This document shows, in pieces, positions 217 through 11,053 of a stretch of DNA of 16,462 nt. The stretch's first letter is position 1; each line of letters starts with the position of its first letter. A program made the translations under genes and the position numbers. Under the pieces are notes generated by a model. That model had not been told where the DNA came from. It made no database searches and saw only the letters and a list, made by a program, of their open reading frames with translations. Origin of the DNA: a virus (taxonomy: Duplodnaviria > Heunggongvirae > Uroviricota > Caudoviricetes); the IMG/VR virus record IMGVR_UViG_3300000059_000156, positions 1 to 16,462 of that record. One strand, written 5' to 3'.

Positions 217-1011
217 ATGACAACTCAAATTTCCGCACAAACTCTTTCCCCAATCTCTCATCAAAATACGCTTGTCATCACCACCGAATTGCTTGCACAA
301 CTGTATGGGACTGAACAAGTCCGAATTCGTCAAAACTACTCTCGTAATGAAGGGCGGTTTGTTGAAGGGAGACATTATTTTTTGGTGGAAGGCGATGAAC
401 TACGGGAGTTGAAACGCAAAGTATCTCAAAGCTACTCTGTGAAAATTGCCAAAAATGTACGTACTATCATTCTCTGGACAGAACGCGGCGCAGCTCGCCA
501 TGCCAAAATGCTGGAAACAGAACAGGCCTGGGAAGTTTTCGAAAAGCTGGAAGATTGTTATTTTAGCCAGCGTCCAGAGAGGCGGAGTACAACTACCGAT
601 GACCGTACTCCCTTACGTGATGCCGTTAATATGCTGGTCGGTAAGAAAGGCATGATGTATCCCGATGCCTACACCATGATTCATCAACGCTTCGCCGTCT
701 CTCACATAGAACAACTGTCACAGACGCAAATGTTAGAGGCGATTGAATACATCCACTGCCTGCTACTCGATGAAAATCAGCCAACCATTCCGGATTTTTC
801 TTTTATCACCACTATCAAAAATGGAAAAGTGACAAGGATGCGCCATGTTGCCAAAGGCGAACATCTGATGACCTTTGACGCTTTCAAAGAGATCGCTGAG
901 CGGGCAGGGTATCTGGTGATCCACAGCGACAATCTGCGAAGTATGACACTGGATAAATTGATGGTAATGGGGAAAAAGTCGGCTGTATCTGTTGCTGATT
1001 CAGCATTTTGA
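217..1011 (+). CDS. Phage antirepressor-like protein (ORF6N/Bro-N-type N-terminal domain)
   Basis: 264-aa ORF with SD-like GTGAGGT about 8 nt upstream of the ATG. The N-terminal stretch VITTELLAQLYGTEQVRIRQNYSRNEGRFVEGRHYFLVEGDELRELK fits my recollection of the ORF6N domain pattern of phage antirepressors. Family assignment is from memory, not a search. Confidence 0.7.
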   Translation: MTTQISAQTLSPISHQNTLVITTELLAQLYGTEQVRIRQNYSRNEGRFVEGRHYFLVEGDELRELKRKVSQSYSVKIAKNVRTIILWTERGAARHAKMLETEQAWEVFEKLEDCYFSQRPERRSTTTDDRTPLRDAVNMLVGKKGMMYPDAYTMIHQRFAVSHIEQLSQTQMLEAIEYIHCLLLDENQPTIPDFSFITTIKNGKVTRMRHVAKGEHLMTFDAFKEIAERAGYLVIHSDNLRSMTLDKLMVMGKKSAVSVADSAF

Positions 1012-1390
1012 CAGGTTGTTTGGGGTGGAAATACTCTATTTGCGCTTAGGATACTTGTTAGCTACTTCCACTTTTGTCACAAAGCGGACTATCTGGCTGA
1101 GCTGAGGGTCCGCAGTGAGTGAGGATCGAACATTTAAGCGTCGGTACTGATGACGGATTTGAGGTATTTAAAATATTACAGGAGCTAGTGTGGATGTGAC
1201 AGACATAAAAGTGGATGCAGTCAGAAAAGATATATGTATAGCAGGCTTCTTCGAGGACTAGATCAATCAATAAGATTTAGATAAAATTGCAGTGTTAAAT
1301 AAAAAGACTAGTAGTATTTAAACTTTAAGTGCGTTAGTAAAGTCGTGCAATTATATAAAACTAACGTTTTCTGAATGTTTGGAGAGTAAA

Positions 1391-2086
1391 ATGTTAGAAC
1401 CGCCAAAGAATTATAATGAAATGTTACCCATGCTCCATAAGGCAACTTTTATTACTACATTTATATTTTACCTATCATTGGTTATTTATGGCTACATACC
1501 ATTGGTTGGCATTAATACCAAGTACATTCCACCAATCAAAGACTACGAAGAGTTTATTAAATGGATATTAACATTCGGTATATTACCAATTGCATTCTCA
1601 ATTTTTTGGTCTGTGATTAGTGGAGTTTTAGATCTACATAATAACGTGGCAAAAATTCTTGGAATAAGAAAAGCATGGAATAATTACTTAATTGTTAAAC
1701 CATTGGCGCAAGTTGCAGGCGTTACAAGAAAATTAACTAGTGATGAATCCTCCAAAGTAATGAACAAACTGTATTACCCAGAAGTTAATGAGTTAAAAGA
1801 TAGACATTATGTTGAGCTCTTCTGGAATAAAGTTTATTACTTTTGGGTTTTCTTTGAACATACTGTGATTGCATTTATTACTGTTTTAGTAATAAGTTTT
1901 GCTAAATTAACCCATTTATTCTCTGTGACTGGTTCTTTAAAAATTCTTTGGTTGTGGGTTATTTTTATTGTTGTCTTTAATTTTCTTATTTTTATAGCAT
2001 CCGTTAAACCCAGAACTGAAGGCCAAGTCAGACAAATACCTGATGATAAGATAAAGGAATTTTTTAAAAATAACAGTATTTTTTAA
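1391..2086 (+). CDS. Hypothetical integral membrane protein (about 4 predicted TM helices), AT-rich island gene
   Basis: The ORF track starts at a TTG at 1379; I prefer the ATG at 1391, which has SD GGAGAG (1381-1386) 4 nt upstream. Four long hydrophobic stretches (e.g. FITTFIFYLSLVIYGYIPLVGI, ILTFGILPIAFSIFWSVISGVL, VYYFWVFFEHTVIAFITVLVISF, ILWLWVIFIVVFNFLIFIASV). Very AT-rich coding sequence. No family recognised. Confidence 0.6.
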   Translation: MLEPPKNYNEMLPMLHKATFITTFIFYLSLVIYGYIPLVGINTKYIPPIKDYEEFIKWILTFGILPIAFSIFWSVISGVLDLHNNVAKILGIRKAWNNYLIVKPLAQVAGVTRKLTSDESSKVMNKLYYPEVNELKDRHYVELFWNKVYYFWVFFEHTVIAFITVLVISFAKLTHLFSVTGSLKILWLWVIFIVVFNFLIFIASVKPRTEGQVRQIPDDKIKEFFKNNSIF

Positions 2087-2752
2087 ATGAGGCTAGTTTT
2101 GAATTACAAAATAAATGGAATGATTATACGTTCAGAAAATGCAGCAAAACCGCATACTATGCCATCTAACTATCTCTGTAACTATATTGAAAATTCTGTT
2201 AAAAATGGCATAGCCCTTGATTTCGGATGTGGAAAGCTTAGATATTCAGAACAACTAGTAAATAAATTTGAAGCTGTGACATTTTTAGATTCCAGAAAAC
2301 AGTTAGAAAGAGTGCAAATTATCAGAGGCGTACAAACCACAATTCCAGAGTATGTGGCTAATAATTATAAAAATGCTAATGTTGTCCCTTTTGAAAGTAT
2401 AGATAAAATAAAAGATAATTATGATTTCATACTTTGCGCAAACGTGCTTTCCGCAATTCCATGTAAATCAACAATTTACAAAATCATCAATGAGATTGGG
2501 AGATTATTAAAAAATGATGGTGAAGCAATTATTGTTAATCAATACAAAAGCTCATATTTCAAAAAGTATGAGACTGGAATTAAACATTTGCATGGATATA
2601 TATACCAAAACTCTCGCAATGCTTTCTATTATGGCTTATTGGATGAGAATATTGTAAGTAAAATTTGCTTAGATAACAATTTAGCAGTAATAAAGTCATG
2701 GAGCAAAGCTGGCAGTTCATATGTGGTTGTTGGTAAAAATAAACATAATTAG
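2087..2752 (+). CDS. Class I SAM-dependent methyltransferase-fold protein (substrate unknown; no DNA-methyltransferase catalytic motif seen)
   Basis: Start ATG overlaps the upstream stop (TAAATG at 2084-2089), indicating translational coupling. Canonical Rossmann-MTase motifs at canonical spacing: motif I ALDFGCGK (aa 43-50), post-I acidic residue in VTFLDSR (aa 64-70), motif II YDFILCANVL (aa 112-121), motif III LLKNDGEAIIV (aa 140-150). No (D/N)PP(Y/F/W) motif, so not a typical N6A/N4C DNA MTase. Confidence 0.6.
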   Translation: MRLVLNYKINGMIIRSENAAKPHTMPSNYLCNYIENSVKNGIALDFGCGKLRYSEQLVNKFEAVTFLDSRKQLERVQIIRGVQTTIPEYVANNYKNANVVPFESIDKIKDNYDFILCANVLSAIPCKSTIYKIINEIGRLLKNDGEAIIVNQYKSSYFKKYETGIKHLHGYIYQNSRNAFYYGLLDENIVSKICLDNNLAVIKSWSKAGSSYVVVGKNKHN

Positions 2753-3079
2753 TAAATTTAAAAATAATATTAGAGGGTGCCATTTTCTTATTACTTATTA
2801 ACTCACTGGGGTAGGGGCAACACGCCCCACCTCATCAAGTTACTGCAGGATTACAGACTTTTGTCAAAACGTTGGAAAAATTCAGTACAAACTTTTCCAT
2901 GTTTTTCCTAATCATAGATAATGATGCTCACTTATGTTAACAGCTTCTTGTACATAACGGTCTTCTTCAACAGGACAGCTATAAGTGAAGAAATAAAGTC
3001 GATAAACTATAAAGAGGCTCCAAATAAATATTATTCAATGAAGCCTGCTGTTTATTATTTGTTATTATTAAATCGCTAC

Positions 3080-3979
3080 TTATAATTCAACAATTTTTAG
3101 TATTATATCAATATTATTTAGCCTTGCAATCTCTGATGAATCGTTTGCAATTTTATCTTTTAAATTATCAATGTTAATCATATCTTCAGAGCTAATACAA
3201 ACCATATCACCTTGGTTAACTTTTGATTTGTTCACTATGGCTTGAATAACAGACAGATCGTCCATTACACCTCTCAGGAATTTAACCATGCTTTGATCCT
3301 TGAAATCAGATATCGATTTTGAACGTTGCTTACGTTGGATTGTTCCTTTTGTAATTATTTCGTTAATTTCTTTTAAACCGGCAAGCATATCAGATATGCT
3401 TCCTTCGCAACTCATCCTGTGTTTAATAGCATTGCGATTAATAACATTGAGTATTATTTCGAGTGAATCTCTATCATCCCATGGCGATAATAATGTATAA
3501 TCCTGATGGCGATGAATGGCATCAAGCATATCAAGGATCATATTTTCATCTGCTTTATCGCAAAGTTCATTTACAAAATAGCTGGGGTCGATTACTTTAC
3601 AATAACTTGGAACTGAGCATTTTGAGCTTTTACAAAACCCAAAAATATATAAAAAAGGGTATATGTCTTTTAGACTCTTTCCTGATTTATTTTCTTTTTC
3701 AAAGGCTGCGATTGTTTTTTTAATTTTTGCCGGGGTTGCTTTCGTTGTAACTTGAACTGCTATCATGTTTTTATTGTCAGCTAAATCAATGGCGGGAAAG
3801 TTAACTTTAATCTGATTCATGTTTTCCAGTTCCCCCATTTTCAGTGCGCGAAACATATAAATGGTCAATGACTCAATCATTCTTTCCATGTCATGAAAGC
3901 CAGTCTGTTTGCGTTGTTCGATATAAAGCTGAAGTAGCGCAATATCTTTCTGTAAGTTACTAATAAGTGGGGCAATCAT
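3080..3979 (-). CDS. SMEK-like domain protein (N-terminal SMEK-type domain, uncharacterised C-terminal region)
   Basis: 299-aa ORF with AAGGA SD 9 nt upstream of the ATG on the minus strand. The N-terminal segment NQIKVNFPAIDLADNKNMIAVQVTTKATPAKIKKTIAAF (aa 55-93) matches the hallmark I remember for SMEK domains (N-(F/A)-x-AIDL-x-D ... IA-x-QVT-(S/T) ... K-x-K-x-T-(I/L)-x-x-F). From memory only. Confidence 0.6.
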   Translation of the reverse strand: MIAPLISNLQKDIALLQLYIEQRKQTGFHDMERMIESLTIYMFRALKMGELENMNQIKVNFPAIDLADNKNMIAVQVTTKATPAKIKKTIAAFEKENKSGKSLKDIYPFLYIFGFCKSSKCSVPSYCKVIDPSYFVNELCDKADENMILDMLDAIHRHQDYTLLSPWDDRDSLEIILNVINRNAIKHRMSCEGSISDMLAGLKEINEIITKGTIQRKQRSKSISDFKDQSMVKFLRGVMDDLSVIQAIVNKSKVNQGDMVCISSEDMINIDNLKDKIANDSSEIARLNNIDIILKIVEL

Positions 3980-4512
3980 AGCTAATAATCCTTTTCAATT
4001 AAGTAGGGGATGTGTTTGAGCTTCTTTATTTGACTGTTAGTTTAATTTCTTGTTTTCATATTAACAAGCTCTACAATTTTATCAAGATTTCTCAAAAACT
4101 AATCCTCCGTGTAAATCCACTAACTATACTGAATTTATTCCGCTGTAAAACATGTCCGCTCATGGCTGTGAGTTCAACGGGTCGATGTAACGCCATCCAC
4201 TCAGTAAAATTGTGTAATTCCAGTGAGCAGGCGAATCTTCAGTATGCTCTAGTTTCTTACTCACACCTGCTTATGCTTTAACTATGTACAATGTAGATAA
4301 ACTCTCATGTTGATTTATCGCCATGATCACATTTCCGGAAGAAAAATTTTGTTTGTAACCTTGCTAGATGAGACAGTATAGATATCATTACATATGAAAC
4401 AGTACATTAGGGAACACTGAAGGCCGTAACTTTAAAAAATATAATTAATTGTACATAATTTTATAACCATCAAGATGGTGGCAATTATATAAGTAATAAT
4501 AAGGGTTGATTA

Positions 4513-5865
4513 ATGATTAAATTCACAGAAAAGGAAATACAAAATTACATATGGGAAAATAGGAACAATTTTCCCGAACTGCTTATTGAACCTGCAGGTC
4601 TTGAAGTACTTGAATTCAACGAAGATCTCTCTGATGTAACAGCACAACTGCTAATAAAAAACAGAATAAATAGTAAACTATCCAATCTTCACTCTAAGCT
4701 TTATGGACTGGAATTTATCGGCTGCGAAGTTCCTTTAGAACAAAATTCAAACTCAACAATTAGAGCCGATTTTTTGGCTATATTCTGTGATGATACTGGG
4801 CTTGCTGTCATAGAGCTTAAAAAAAGTGAACAAACTGAAAGGCAAGCATTCACTGAATTGTTAGCATATTCAAACCATATGACAACATTATTTCCATCCA
4901 TGACGAAAAATGACAGTGTGTATATTTTAATATCACCAATGGAAACCAGAATAGCACGTGATGCTGTCATCCAAAGTTTAATATTTGACAATAGGGATAT
5001 CATTACTTTAATTCCAACATTCTCTGATCCTCTTGATATTACATCTCTTAAACTTGAATTATGGATTCCAGACCAAACAGAGTTAGCGACTTTCTCAAAT
5101 ATTGCATTTAGAGAAGATAATTTTAGTGTCTGTAAATTATCCTGGGAGTATGACGCAGAGCGATGGGATGCAGCTAGAGGAGAAGAACTTTTACATTCAT
5201 TTGTTAGTCAATTTGATAACATTTCCTGCCTTGCAGCTCAGTATATGGAAGAATCTGGAGTTCATGGTTTTACTTATTGCTCTCAGTTATGGCCTGAATT
5301 ATCTCAGGCATTACCTTTTACGAATTCATTAGTACTAGTTGGCATGAATCCTTATGCTGTCGGGAGTGTCCAGCATTTATCCACAGAAGACGATAACTAT
5401 GATGATATTCCAGACCCAAATTCTTACACTCCTCACATATCTGAATTAATTGGTAAACTAGGTGAAGGAGAACTATATGAGGCTAATATTGATGTCCTAA
5501 GTGGTTTACATTGTACATGGATCTCTCAATTATATCGTATAGGTAAGCAGGTAATTGAACTCACCACTAGAAATACAGATGGGAAATACGTCCACGTTGA
5601 ATATGGCTTTATGAATTGGGAAATCTATCAAAGGTCTCTACTTGAGGATGTTTTCTGTGAAAACTTCGCTATTAGGTCTACAGGTTTAATACGACATCTC
5701 TATACTGACATTCTTAAATTAGATTATGATTTTTGTAAAAATAACGGATTGGAAAATCACCCTATTCATGGAGACATGCCATACTTAGGTGTCAATTTTC
5801 TTAAATCCCACCAGCACTTTAGAGAATTTATTTTGCGAATGTTCTATGCCGAAATAGATGCGTAG
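4513..5865 (+). CDS. Predicted PD-(D/E)xK-family nuclease-like protein with a large uncharacterised C-terminal region
   Basis: 450-aa ORF with SD AAGGG 8 nt upstream. N-terminal motif E72 ... RAD86FLAIFCDDTGLAVIE101LK103 has the D-x15-ExK spacing typical of restriction-endonuclease-fold active sites. The remaining ~340 aa are unrecognised. AT-rich. Confidence 0.65.
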   Translation: MIKFTEKEIQNYIWENRNNFPELLIEPAGLEVLEFNEDLSDVTAQLLIKNRINSKLSNLHSKLYGLEFIGCEVPLEQNSNSTIRADFLAIFCDDTGLAVIELKKSEQTERQAFTELLAYSNHMTTLFPSMTKNDSVYILISPMETRIARDAVIQSLIFDNRDIITLIPTFSDPLDITSLKLELWIPDQTELATFSNIAFREDNFSVCKLSWEYDAERWDAARGEELLHSFVSQFDNISCLAAQYMEESGVHGFTYCSQLWPELSQALPFTNSLVLVGMNPYAVGSVQHLSTEDDNYDDIPDPNSYTPHISELIGKLGEGELYEANIDVLSGLHCTWISQLYRIGKQVIELTTRNTDGKYVHVEYGFMNWEIYQRSLLEDVFCENFAIRSTGLIRHLYTDILKLDYDFCKNNGLENHPIHGDMPYLGVNFLKSHQHFREFILRMFYAEIDA

Positions 5866-6422
5866 TGAGATTTTTTGGTTTATCTCTGCTGGAGAAAATT
5901 CATGGGTGAGGAAAGAGATAGATAATATTGAAAATAAAATCTTCAAAAGATGTGGAAATAAAGACATGATCTAAAATTTTTTGGCATTCATTTCATATGA
6001 AACAGCCCTTCTAAAAACTATACAGGCATGGATGATATTTTCTTATGATTTTTTAGTTGTAATTTATCTTTACTATATAATATATGGGGGGATTGTCGCC
6101 AGCTATTCACCGACTATCAAATATCAATAACTCCTGGCAGTTCTGTAAGGTATAGACATACAAATCGGCCTGAAGATTACGGATAGTTTCTTAAGGTCCG
6201 TTCCTGGCACAAAGTGGACTGTCAAATGAAATTCGGCTCCACGCCATAGATGTGTCAGCTCATATCTTATCTAATACACACAATAACTTTCTCATTCTTG
6301 GAGAATTATTTTTTTAAGGGTAGGTGTTGACGTTAGAGCAAAAGAATGGTGATTTTTTTGATGTGTATTACGTTGGAACTGATGGGAATAACTATCTGTT
6401 TTCAACGCACTGCTAATTTATC

Positions 6423-6468: not shown

Positions 6469-7074
6469 TTACTTGCGTTTAAAAAGGTATTTTGTCACGA
6501 CCAGCACGAGGCCGAATACCTCTGTCAAAGTACCGCCCATGTACAACTGGAGCGTTAAGTCTTTAAATACAAGCCATTCAGCACCAGTGGCAAAAAATAC
6601 ACCATTCATTATCAAAAGCTGGCAAGCAAGGATAATAAGGAACCATTTGCCATAGCGTTTTTTTAGATCGATTTCAGCTTCAAAATCTTTGTTGTTGAGT
6701 TGTTTGCGCTCATGCTCAGTATCAAGTGAATTCACCTGTTTCACAGATGTGAACTCGGTCAAGATTTTACTCTCAGTACGGGTGACTTGTTGAGAGGGGG
6801 TAGGAATTGGAATTCTTTTGATTGACGCAGCTACAGCCATTTTGCGAGCTTCGGCAGCTCTTTTTCTGGCTATTCCGTGAATACGGGCAGACGGTTTTTT
6901 TGGAGCGTGCGAAACCTTTGGCTGAGGTGAAGTTTCGTCAGGAGACTGAACCGGAGTTTCATCGTCCTCCGGCTCAACCTCTTCTGCTAACTGACGGTGT
7001 AGGTTGAGGGAATCCTTCAGTCGGCGTGCAACTTCCTGTTTGAAACGGCTGTTAAAATCGTCATCCGATGGCAT
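6469..7074 (-). CDS. Hypothetical membrane protein: acidic/Pro-rich N-terminal region, basic middle, two C-terminal TM helices
   Basis: 201-aa ORF starting 9 nt after the stop of the ImmA-like gene (operon). C-terminal hydrophobic segments WFLIILACQLLIMNGVFFATG and LTEVFGLVLVVTKYLF; N-terminus EEVEPEDDETPVQSPDETSPQP looks low-complexity/disordered. Confidence 0.7.
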   Translation of the reverse strand: MPSDDDFNSRFKQEVARRLKDSLNLHRQLAEEVEPEDDETPVQSPDETSPQPKVSHAPKKPSARIHGIARKRAAEARKMAVAASIKRIPIPTPSQQVTRTESKILTEFTSVKQVNSLDTEHERKQLNNKDFEAEIDLKKRYGKWFLIILACQLLIMNGVFFATGAEWLVFKDLTLQLYMGGTLTEVFGLVLVVTKYLFKRK

Positions 7075-7083
7075 TCTAAAGCG

Positions 7084-7572
7084 TTACCCCAACCTCAAGT
7101 TCTTTAAACGATAAGTCATCGCATCGTCAGATACGCCAAAATAATGCGCCATTATATAACTTGGTTGGCCGTCAGCGTGCAGTTTTCTGACCTCATCAAC
7201 CGGCATCAGAAGTTCTGCTGCGAACTTGTTCGCAAAAATTTCATCAGGATGCGTTCCGGCGCTTGCGGTTTCGCCACGTAAATCAACGTACTCATATTCA
7301 TCACTATGCGATGCTTGCCGGGCGATGTAATGCCCCAACTCATGCCCACATGAAAAACGTTGACGAACTTTGTTGTCATCACTGTTTAGAAAGATCGCTG
7401 GATCTTGATCTTTTTGTTTAATCAGTGCGCCAGAAACTTTCCCAGGAAGATCGGTAATAAAAACATCTAATCCCATGTCGTGAGCAATTTTCGCTGGATC
7501 AACAGGGAAACCACGCCCGCACCAGAACGTGTCCAGCACTCGCCGGGCGTGCTCTCTTGGGTTGGTAGCCAT
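7084..7572 (-). CDS. ImmA/IrrE-family zinc metallopeptidase-like protein
   Basis: 162-aa ORF with strong SD (GGAGGAG) upstream of the ATG on the minus strand. HEXXH zinc-binding motif in SCGHELGHYIA; size and motif context are typical of ImmA/IrrE (COG2856-type) peptidases of mobile elements. Confidence 0.8.
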   Translation of the reverse strand: MATNPREHARRVLDTFWCGRGFPVDPAKIAHDMGLDVFITDLPGKVSGALIKQKDQDPAIFLNSDDNKVRQRFSCGHELGHYIARQASHSDEYEYVDLRGETASAGTHPDEIFANKFAAELLMPVDEVRKLHADGQPSYIMAHYFGVSDDAMTYRLKNLRLG

Positions 7573-10093: not shown

Positions 10094-10383
10094 AAAAAAT
10101 CGACCTGAGAAAAGCTGCACGTGGTCGCGCTTGTACTGTGCGTATCCCCGGTGTGTGCAATCACAAGCCTGAAACCAGCGTACTGGCTCATTATCGTCTC
10201 GCCGGAACGTGCGGCACAGCCATCAAACCTCACGATATGCAGGGCGCTATCGCCTGCAGTGCGTGTCACGATGCCATCGACGGACGTACAAAAACGGATT
10301 ACGAGCGTGATTCCTTATTACTGATGCACGCTGAGGGAGTTTTCAGAACACTGGCTATCTGGCGCGATGAGGGGGTTATCTGA
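10090..10383 (+). CDS. ybcO: YbcO-like (DUF1364) putative Cys-rich nuclease-like protein of lambdoid nin regions
   Basis: 97-aa ORF. LRKAARGRACTVRIPGVCNHKPETSVLAHYRLAGTCGTAIKP ... IACSACHDAIDGRT matches my recollection of E. coli DLP12 YbcO almost motif for motif. Translationally coupled on both sides. Confidence 0.75.
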   Translation: MKKIDLRKAARGRACTVRIPGVCNHKPETSVLAHYRLAGTCGTAIKPHDMQGAIACSACHDAIDGRTKTDYERDSLLLMHAEGVFRTLAIWRDEGVI

Positions 10384-10622
10384 TGAATAACGAGTATTTA
10401 TTGGAATATACCCGCATAAAACTGCGCGCTGCATTGCGGGATTTGTCTGGTGGTTCTAAGGGGCAACTGGAAGCATTGTGTGAGCACCCACCGGCAGACA
10501 AAAACGCATACCCACGCAAACATATTCACCGTGTGCAGCTGGAGGACCGGACCGTTGATGCTCTGGTTACGCCAGTTTACGCTCTGGAAAGTTTTAGCAG
10601 ACGTCGCCCGCGCCGCCGATGA
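10383..10622 (+). CDS. Hypothetical small protein (79 aa) with Arg-rich C-terminus
   Basis: Start overlaps the ybcO-like stop (TGATG) and its stop overlaps the next start (ATGA), so it sits inside a tightly coupled operon. No family recognised. Confidence 0.55.
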   Translation: MNNEYLLEYTRIKLRAALRDLSGGSKGQLEALCEHPPADKNAYPRKHIHRVQLEDRTVDALVTPVYALESFSRRRPRRR

Positions 10623-11053
10623 ATGATTTTGAATTTGCTGATTCATCCTGGCGGCGTTCTGTGAACTCGCTGGATGCAAGTCAGCAAGCGTGGTTGCGTT
10701 ATTGCTACGGTGGTAACCTGGCGTTCAAACACCAAACAGCTATTTGTGAGGCTGTCTGGAGTCGCTATAAAGGACACATCCCCGCGTCAACTCAGAGAAA
10801 AGTAGTTAAGCGCCTGCTTTCGTTGGTGTGGTTGTCCGTGCAGGCGGTTGCAGCAGCAAATAAACGCGAGGATTTTAAGGAGATGGCCGGGTCTGCGCTA
10901 GCTGGAATGTTGTCTGTTTCTCGTTCCACCTGGTGCGAAACATACTCCCCGCACTGGGCAGGAATGAAAGAGGCGGTGAGAGCACTTGATGAAATGGCAC
11001 TTCTTGCAACTTTGCATCATTATCAGAACCATTTAGACGACGTTTGCGTATAA
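10619..11053 (+). CDS. Putative late-gene antiterminator (Q-like), assigned mainly by position
   Basis: 144-aa ORF immediately upstream of a promoter-like hexamer, a terminator hairpin and the lysis cassette, which is the canonical Q position in lambdoid phages. I cannot confirm Q family membership from sequence alone. Confidence 0.45.
   Translation: MNDFEFADSSWRRSVNSLDASQQAWLRYCYGGNLAFKHQTAICEAVWSRYKGHIPASTQRKVVKRLLSLVWLSVQAVAAANKREDFKEMAGSALAGMLSVSRSTWCETYSPHWAGMKEAVRALDEMALLATLHHYQNHLDDVCV

Follow-up and report, generated by a model that had tools for sequence, protein, structure and literature searches.

A stand-alone SMEK_N protein with an orphan C-terminal domain in an E. coli lambdoid prophage, a candidate single-gene anti-phage defence nuclease

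In the window, by which we mean the whole 16,462-nucleotide stretch of DNA that was analysed, a gene on the minus strand (3080..3979) encodes a protein of 299 aa in which an N-terminal SMEK_N domain is fused to an orphan C-terminal domain (C-domain). We propose that the gene is prophage cargo, or a moron, and that its product is a stand-alone anti-phage defence nuclease consisting of a single polypeptide. We put the probability of this reading at about one half. The name "SMEK domain-containing protein" is already public for this gene through RefSeq/PGAP. As far as the searchable literature shows, the stand-alone architecture of ~300 aa, SMEK_N followed by the orphan C-domain, has not been described, and our literature search found no paper on this ~300-aa family, its accessions or a phenotype.

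The SMEK gene and its prophage setting

According to the open reading frame listing and the translation, the SMEK-family gene is complete, with its ATG at 3979 and its stop codon at 3080-3082, and the start Met is common to the homologs. The RefSeq protein WP_001559332.1 is 99.7% identical to the window protein. A Shine-Dalgarno-like AAGGA can be read from the sequence at 3989..3993 (minus strand), 9 nt upstream of the ATG. A candidate sigma-70-like promoter (TTGATA, a 16-nt spacer, TG and TAATAT) is present on the same strand at 4058..4085, ~80 nt upstream of the ATG; in a consensus scan it displayed 9 of 12 consensus matches together with the extended -10 TG, and sites of this kind are no more numerous here than expected by chance, so that it is no more than a candidate.

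The DNA of the window belongs to a lambdoid prophage of E. coli. The region 2700-4500 is 99.4-99.5% identical to five complete E. coli genomes, and the prophage genes in the window include those for the Q antiterminator, holins, lysin and terminase. In the best-matching E. coli locus (L001, 99.5%-identical) the order is integrase, repO, dnaB, cargo region, Q, holins, lysin and terminase, in agreement with the prophage island setting that had been proposed in an earlier note on this DNA. GC content and the gene order in L001 delimit a cargo island of about 5 kb (1200..6200), which has the replication genes on one side and the Q antiterminator region on the other, with a GC content of 30-36% versus 45-56% in the flanking phage genes. 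Such a low GC content is typical of a horizontally acquired moron. Within this island, the SMEK gene is oriented opposite to the neighbouring phage genes.

The Q antiterminator itself is split in the window into two open reading frames (10383-10622 and 10619-11053), both of which match Phage_antiter_Q. The split, at about 10606, corresponds to a 1-nt deletion in a C-run when compared with L001, a near-identical prophage in which the gene is intact (672 nt). This is probably a frameshift, in which case the prophage may be defective, or else a sequencing error.

The gene is patchily distributed in E. coli, being present in 151 of the 5,426 complete genomes (2.8%). The E. coli SMEK cassette exists as two alleles, ~85% identical to each other, which reside in two different lambdoid prophages. 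A tblastn search with the SMEK protein against 50,697 sequenced phage records detected no homolog. We also noticed a homolog, 83% identical to the window protein, on a 3,048-bp contig labelled Streptomyces sp. NPDC088196 (NZ_JBFBIU010000052.1). Its identity to the window protein is about that of the second E. coli allele, and it is most likely an enterobacterial contamination of the Streptomyces assembly rather than a true actinobacterial gene.

The SMEK_N domain and the orphan C-terminal domain

The earlier note had recognized an N-terminal SMEK-like domain, with the strand not given, from the motifs NFPAIDLAD, IAVQVTT and KIKKTIAAF. All three are present within aa 60-93 of the minus-strand product (aa 60-68, 73-79 and 85-93, respectively), and profile searches confirmed the domain. 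The protein matched Pfam PF21941 (SMEK_N) with 82.8 bits against a cutoff of 27 (aa 9-120, an alignment that spans only profile positions 2-108 of 140) and NCBIfam NF033859 (SMEK_N) with 108.6 bits against a cutoff of 30 (aa 5-98). The domain comprises ~aa 1-132 (3584..3979, minus strand) and displays the alpha/beta core fold of restriction endonuclease-like proteins. At the sequence level it matched PDB 26bh_D, described as "Mrr domain from Kordia jejudonensis Mrr-APAZ pAgo", with E = 7e-9, and the PADLOC Argonaute-associated model Aga_REase-PNTD1-PNTD2 recognized it at 6e-20. No PADLOC defence-system model, on the other hand, spans the whole 299-aa protein. According to previous studies, SMEK is an effector nuclease of the Mrr-like PD-(D/E)xK type that occurs in short-pAgo systems (PMC10810196; bioRxiv 10.1101/2023.06.08.544223; PMC12205087); for short Lamassu, it is listed as one of the effectors that LmuA can carry at its N-terminus (PMC12663957). 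Judging from these sequence relationships, SMEK_N is an Mrr-like PD-(D/E)xK effector nuclease fold and not a nucleotide-signalling module. The nucleotide-signalling role that had been assigned to SMEK was thus not supported, as the domain matches the Kordia Mrr domain and Aga_REase, and the literature describes an effector nuclease.

The putative catalytic core, delineated by conservation, lies at aa 36-89 (3713..3874, minus strand) and comprises E36, D65 (in 'PAID'), Q76-V-T78, K85 and T89. In an alignment of the family, E36, D65, Q76 and K85 were invariant in 139 of 139 members, while T78 was conserved in 98%. D65, Q76, T78 and K85 are also conserved in the alignment with the Kordia Mrr domain. 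T78 occupies the position of the canonical (D/E)xK lysine, and the invariant K85, seven residues downstream, may stand in for this catalytic Lys. E36, D65, Q76-x-T78 and K85 would in this case constitute a variant PD-(D/E)xK active site. As T78 replaces the canonical lysine, it is the analogy with the Kordia protein that leads us to assume catalytic competence. The activity of the Kordia pAgo-partner nuclease was reported to be weak, as cited in PMC12205087.

SMEK_N is found in several architectures. In a survey of loci, the ~500-aa pAgo-partner class, which includes the Kordia protein, accounted for 41 of 47. The others were ~1,100-aa STAND NTPases (nSTAND/AAA_16), found in Stutzerimonas and Massilia, a 1,304-aa PIN-containing fusion and a 321-aa form.

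The structure of the window protein was predicted with confidence (pLDDT 85.5) to consist of two domains. The second, at ~aa 133-299 (3083..3583, minus strand), is predicted to form a helical bundle and a beta-hairpin loop of basic character, with 6 K/R versus 3 D/E in the loop at aa 205-228. The earlier note had described a C-terminal region of ~200 aa that could not be assigned. The length is shorter, ~165 aa, but the lack of an assignment held in every search that was carried out. None of 23 members matched a Pfam family at E<=10, a profile search of the PDB with the C-domain gave no sequence match, and Foldseek with the predicted structure returned nothing significant (best E = 0.29, TM-scores <=0.47).

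Within the C-domain, the most conserved patch, aa 169-221 (3317..3475, minus strand), comprises D169, R182-N-A184-I-K-H187, E192-G193, G212 and K221. Among 139 sequences, A184 was conserved in 100%, E192 and G212 in 99%, D169 and R182 in 98%, and G193 and K221 in 97%, whereas H187 was conserved in only 88%, with D found instead in 13 of the 139. At aa 165 (3485-3487), the window protein has Ser where 72% of the family have His, in an 'HP(Y/W)xD' motif that precedes the near-invariant D169.

A HMMER search of 1.84 billion representative proteins with a C-domain profile resulted in only 84 matches. SMEK_N was also present in every full-length match (274-320 aa). The matches without SMEK_N were all shorter, mostly <190 aa with the exception of one 234-aa protein, and those of <190 aa are probably fragments. 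As all full-length matches carry SMEK_N and the total is 84, the fusion is obligate and the family is small. The full-length ~300-aa homologs occur in Gamma- and Betaproteobacteria and in a few other phyla, with identities down to ~32%. The dN/dS ratio of the whole gene against diverged homologs was 0.08-0.29. When the two halves were considered separately, the values were 0.34 for the N-terminal half and 0.23 for the C-terminal half, revealing purifying selection on both; both domains are therefore functional.

Genomic neighbourhoods and the other genes of the island

We examined whether the SMEK gene is accompanied by other genes. In 31 loci, the open reading frames located up to 3 kb from the gene and encoding at least 40 aa were clustered, and no conserved neighbour was found. 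Across these 31 loci the gene is thus not consistently accompanied by a partner, be it an antitoxin, an Argonaute, a Lamassu core or a cyclase. An Argonaute (PIWI) gene was present neither in the window nor in the homolog loci. Concerning cyclases, the earlier note was correct in stating that no cyclase/SMODS gene is adjacent, as there is none among the 20 larger open reading frames of the window. It had regarded this as an unusual context; there is also none in ~11 distinct homolog neighbourhoods. Taking into account that SMEK_N is an effector nuclease and that no source links SMEK to cyclic-nucleotide signalling, the absence of a cyclase is to be expected. In our literature search, SMEK and SMODS were never found in one paper, there was no link of SMEK to SMODS or CBASS signalling, and no paper contained 'Mrr-APAZ'. 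The papers that name both SMEK and CBASS are the Argonaute and Lamassu papers, and in PMC12663957 SMEK appears only among the LmuA effector domains.

Every context of a SMEK homolog that was inspected, about 11 distinct ones in which the association with defence islands was judged by eye, was a mobile element or a defence island. None was a housekeeping setting, in line with the conflict-related context that had been expected for this gene. The E. coli genes lie in the two lambdoid prophages, and the Pantoea gene is next to the primase gene of a P4-like satellite. The Yersinia locus is a T4SS element with AbiGi and ArdC, the Pseudomonas locus contains an integrase and SLATT_5, and the Enterobacter loci are integrase islands along with a SymE / TacA-T locus. 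Defence genes are found in Citrobacter (Lamassu, an AAA_15/21 system and ArdC), Cupriavidus (Hachiman and a DUF87 ATPase), Xanthomonas (a Gabija-like OLD-TOPRIM ATPase with a UvrD helicase, and PIN) and Burkholderia (an OLD-family ATPase and an Mrr_cat-nSTAND3 protein).

Convergent with the SMEK gene in the window is a two-gene moron (1379..2752, plus strand) encoding a predicted membrane protein (1379-2086; 231/235 aa, with four TM-like hydrophobic stretches) and, at 2087-2752, a class I SAM methyltransferase that resembles TehB and Methyltransf_11/12/23. All 151 E. coli carriers possess the full three-gene cassette of membrane protein, methyltransferase and SMEK gene, and we considered the possibility that the three genes form one system. 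This was rejected, as the pair is not found beside SMEK homologs in any other genus and is found downstream of ogr, with no SMEK gene, in P2-like prophages of Providencia and Enterobacter (L091-L095). For the same reasons we treat the pair as an independent, adjacent moron. A restriction-modification pairing between SMEK and the neighbouring methyltransferase was also rejected, because a motif search of the methyltransferase revealed neither [DNS]PP[YFWH] nor the PCQ/ENV motifs of DNA methyltransferases. The obligate linkage to a cognate DNA methyltransferase that defines Type II systems is likewise not seen; outside E. coli, the methyltransferase is not linked to SMEK. The membrane protein and methyltransferase are themselves a candidate defence or lysogenic-conversion module.

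Several other genes in this part of the window deserve mention. A hypothetical protein of 450 aa (4513-5865, plus strand) is encoded in the low-GC island, divergently from the SMEK gene. It shows weak restriction endonuclease-like matches (HSDR_N, E = 0.0027; PADLOC REase_II, 0.0023) and has no relative in the PDB. The 99%-identical prophage also has this gene, whereas the other prophage type with the SMEK cassette lacks it. The ORF6N-domain protein at 217-1011 (plus strand) matches the PADLOC phage-defence-candidate models PDC-S05 (3.6e-08), and shares only 86% identity with the L001 version, whereas the two prophages are otherwise roughly 99%-identical. About 3 kb from the SMEK gene, an ImmA/IrrE metallopeptidase (7084-7572, minus strand) matches the PADLOC model capP (2.4e-25), which represents the CBASS-associated regulator CapP. 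Immediately downstream of its gene (together 6469-7572, minus strand) is that of a 201-aa protein without a family match, and no obvious HTH partner was found upstream. The peptidase and the 201-aa protein may be a damage-responsive regulatory pair for a cargo gene. ImmA/IrrE peptidases are common in phages and mobile elements in general.

Comparison with known systems and proposed function

Among the known systems that come closest to the window protein is the SMEK/Mrr-APAZ effector of short pAgo (KjAgo 'SPARMA' of Kordia jejudonensis and the related DREN-APAZ of SPARDA). The N-terminal nucleases are homologous and share the D...QxT...K signature; in both cases a larger regulatory polypeptide bears the nuclease at its N-terminal end, and both occur in defence contexts. 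The window protein differs in its length (299 aa versus ~500 aa) and in its lower SMEK_N score (83 bits versus 130-147 bits in the pAgo-partner class). Its C-domain is not an APAZ domain but forms a separate sequence cluster, and the C-domain profile recovers only ~300-aa proteins. Furthermore, short-pAgo systems include an adjacent Argonaute (PIWI) gene, which accompanies the SMEK gene in none of the loci. LmuA of short Lamassu, when it carries SMEK, has the same swappable N-terminal effector, which is activated by oligomerisation in Lamassu (PMC12663957). An operon of LmuB (SMC-like) and LmuC was seen in only 1 of the ~11 contexts, that of Citrobacter, where it has its own LmuA, and the window C-domain has no detectable relation to LmuA C-terminal domains. 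In the single-gene STAND NTPase sensors (Avs-like, nSTAND), SMEK_N is likewise N-terminal and is followed by a C-terminal sensing module. The window protein, in contrast, lacks an NTPase domain and a repeat sensor, its non-nuclease portion being the ~165-aa helical domain. We regard the SMEK protein as a candidate single-gene defence system composed of an N-terminal effector nuclease and a C-terminal regulatory module.

A role in defence is supported by the identity of SMEK_N and its homology to the Mrr nuclease domain solved for a pAgo effector, and by the finding that SMEK_N acts as the effector at the N-terminus of other immune sensors, as seen in our survey and in previous studies (PMC10810196, PMC12205087, PMC12663957). 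The invariant E36/D65/Q76/K85, the confident two-domain model and the occurrence of the C-domain only in fusion with SMEK_N also argue for this reading, as do the purifying selection on both domains, the lack of a conserved neighbour in the 31 loci, the mobile or defence contexts throughout and the patchy distribution in E. coli. We count against it the lack of a whole-protein PADLOC model, the presence of T78 in place of Lys and the lack of a homolog in the phage records.

With regard to mechanism, we infer nuclease activity, a role for the C-domain, oligomerisation and an anti-phage phenotype. SMEK_N would be the Mrr-like PD-(D/E)xK DNase effector head. The C-domain occupies the position taken by APAZ-Argonaute, LmuA-CTD/LmuBC and the STAND modules in the systems above, and would therefore most likely regulate, sense or target. 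It would keep the nuclease off until a phage-derived cue, either a protein or a nucleic-acid feature, is encountered, or would direct the nuclease to its target. SPARDA and Lamassu effectors become active when they oligomerise or form filaments (PMC12205087, PMC12663957, 10.1101/2025.04.08.647717), and by analogy the nuclease domains would most likely be activated by associating with one another. Cleavage of invading DNA, and possibly of host DNA as well, would result in superinfection exclusion or abortive infection. That the C-domain acts as a sensor is something that we purely infer, and no recognisable sensor fold was found in it. A tentative and more specific version, which we regard as possible but doubtful, is that the C-domain is a minimal phage-sensing module which binds a phage component directly and switches on the fused nuclease by self-assembly.

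The main rival is a Type IV-like restriction endonuclease that depends on DNA modification or structure. Here, the helical C-domain with its basic beta-hairpin would read DNA and the Mrr-like N-domain would cut incoming DNA directly, with neither sensing nor a suicide step. Mrr and AspBHI-type Type IV enzymes do share the Mrr-like PD-(D/E)xK fold (10.1101/2023.06.08.544223), and they are likewise solitary, without a methyltransferase partner. However, the order of domains is reversed, with the catalytic domain of the window protein at the N-terminus, and the window protein carries no known DNA-reader domain. In addition, the Lys of (D/E)xK is replaced by Thr in the window family, the invariant Lys being located seven residues downstream. 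The C-domain shows no sequence or structural similarity to folds that bind DNA or modified bases (winged helix, SRA, YTH and others), and SMEK_N elsewhere is a triggered effector, not a sequence reader (PMC12205087, PMC12663957). We consider this alternative rather unlikely, although the data do not separate it from the sensor model.

A second alternative is that the gene provides a toxin or competition factor for its mobile element, either as an addiction-type nuclease held in check by a small RNA or peptide, or as a weapon against prophages, satellites and plasmids. The gene is indeed always found on mobile elements (prophages, a P4-like satellite, ICEs and integrase islands), and sometimes adjoins toxin-antitoxin genes, SymE or TacA/T. 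On the other hand, with no open reading frame of at least 40 aa maintained within 3 kb in the 31 loci, the antitoxin expected of a Type II system is not seen, and a conserved cis-encoded RNA antitoxin is unlikely because the flanking sequence is not conserved across genera. Such a role, which in practice overlaps with defence, seems to us distinctly unlikely. It is very improbable that the C-domain is a divergent HEPN RNase, which would make the protein a dual DNase/RNase; R182-N-A-I-K-H187 can be read as R-x4-6-H, with R182 conserved in 98%, and the domain is an all-helical bundle, but H187 is conserved in only 88% and similarity to HEPN was found by no method. Finally, a SMEK effector or sensor of cyclic-nucleotide (CBASS/SMODS-type) signalling that has been orphaned from its cyclase, to which the CapP-like ImmA/IrrE peptidase might point, is close to refuted and can essentially be excluded, as there is no cyclase/SMODS gene in the window or the ~11 homolog neighbourhoods, 23 C-domain sequences gave no SAVED, CARF or STING-like sensor at E<=10 and the structure gave no such match, SMEK_N is a nuclease fold, and SMEK and SMODS were not found together in the literature.

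We thus return to the stand-alone defence nuclease as the preferred reading. The SMEK protein is a plausible candidate, of ordinary appearance among the many nuclease fusions of defence islands, and would not surprise specialists. If the phenotype is confirmed, it would be a compact single-gene addition to the anti-phage repertoire. It would also indicate that the SMEK/Mrr head, so far known only in the multi-component Argonaute and Lamassu systems, can be paired with a sensor or regulator of 165 aa. If the C-domain does sense phage directly, this ~300-aa protein would rank among the most compact anti-phage systems to unite sensor and effector without further components, and prophages, satellites and ICEs would have carried it through the Proteobacteria. 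The ligand of the C-domain, once found, would reveal a new recognition principle. Carried on lambdoid prophages in ~3% of complete E. coli genomes, the SMEK gene could shape the host range of phages.
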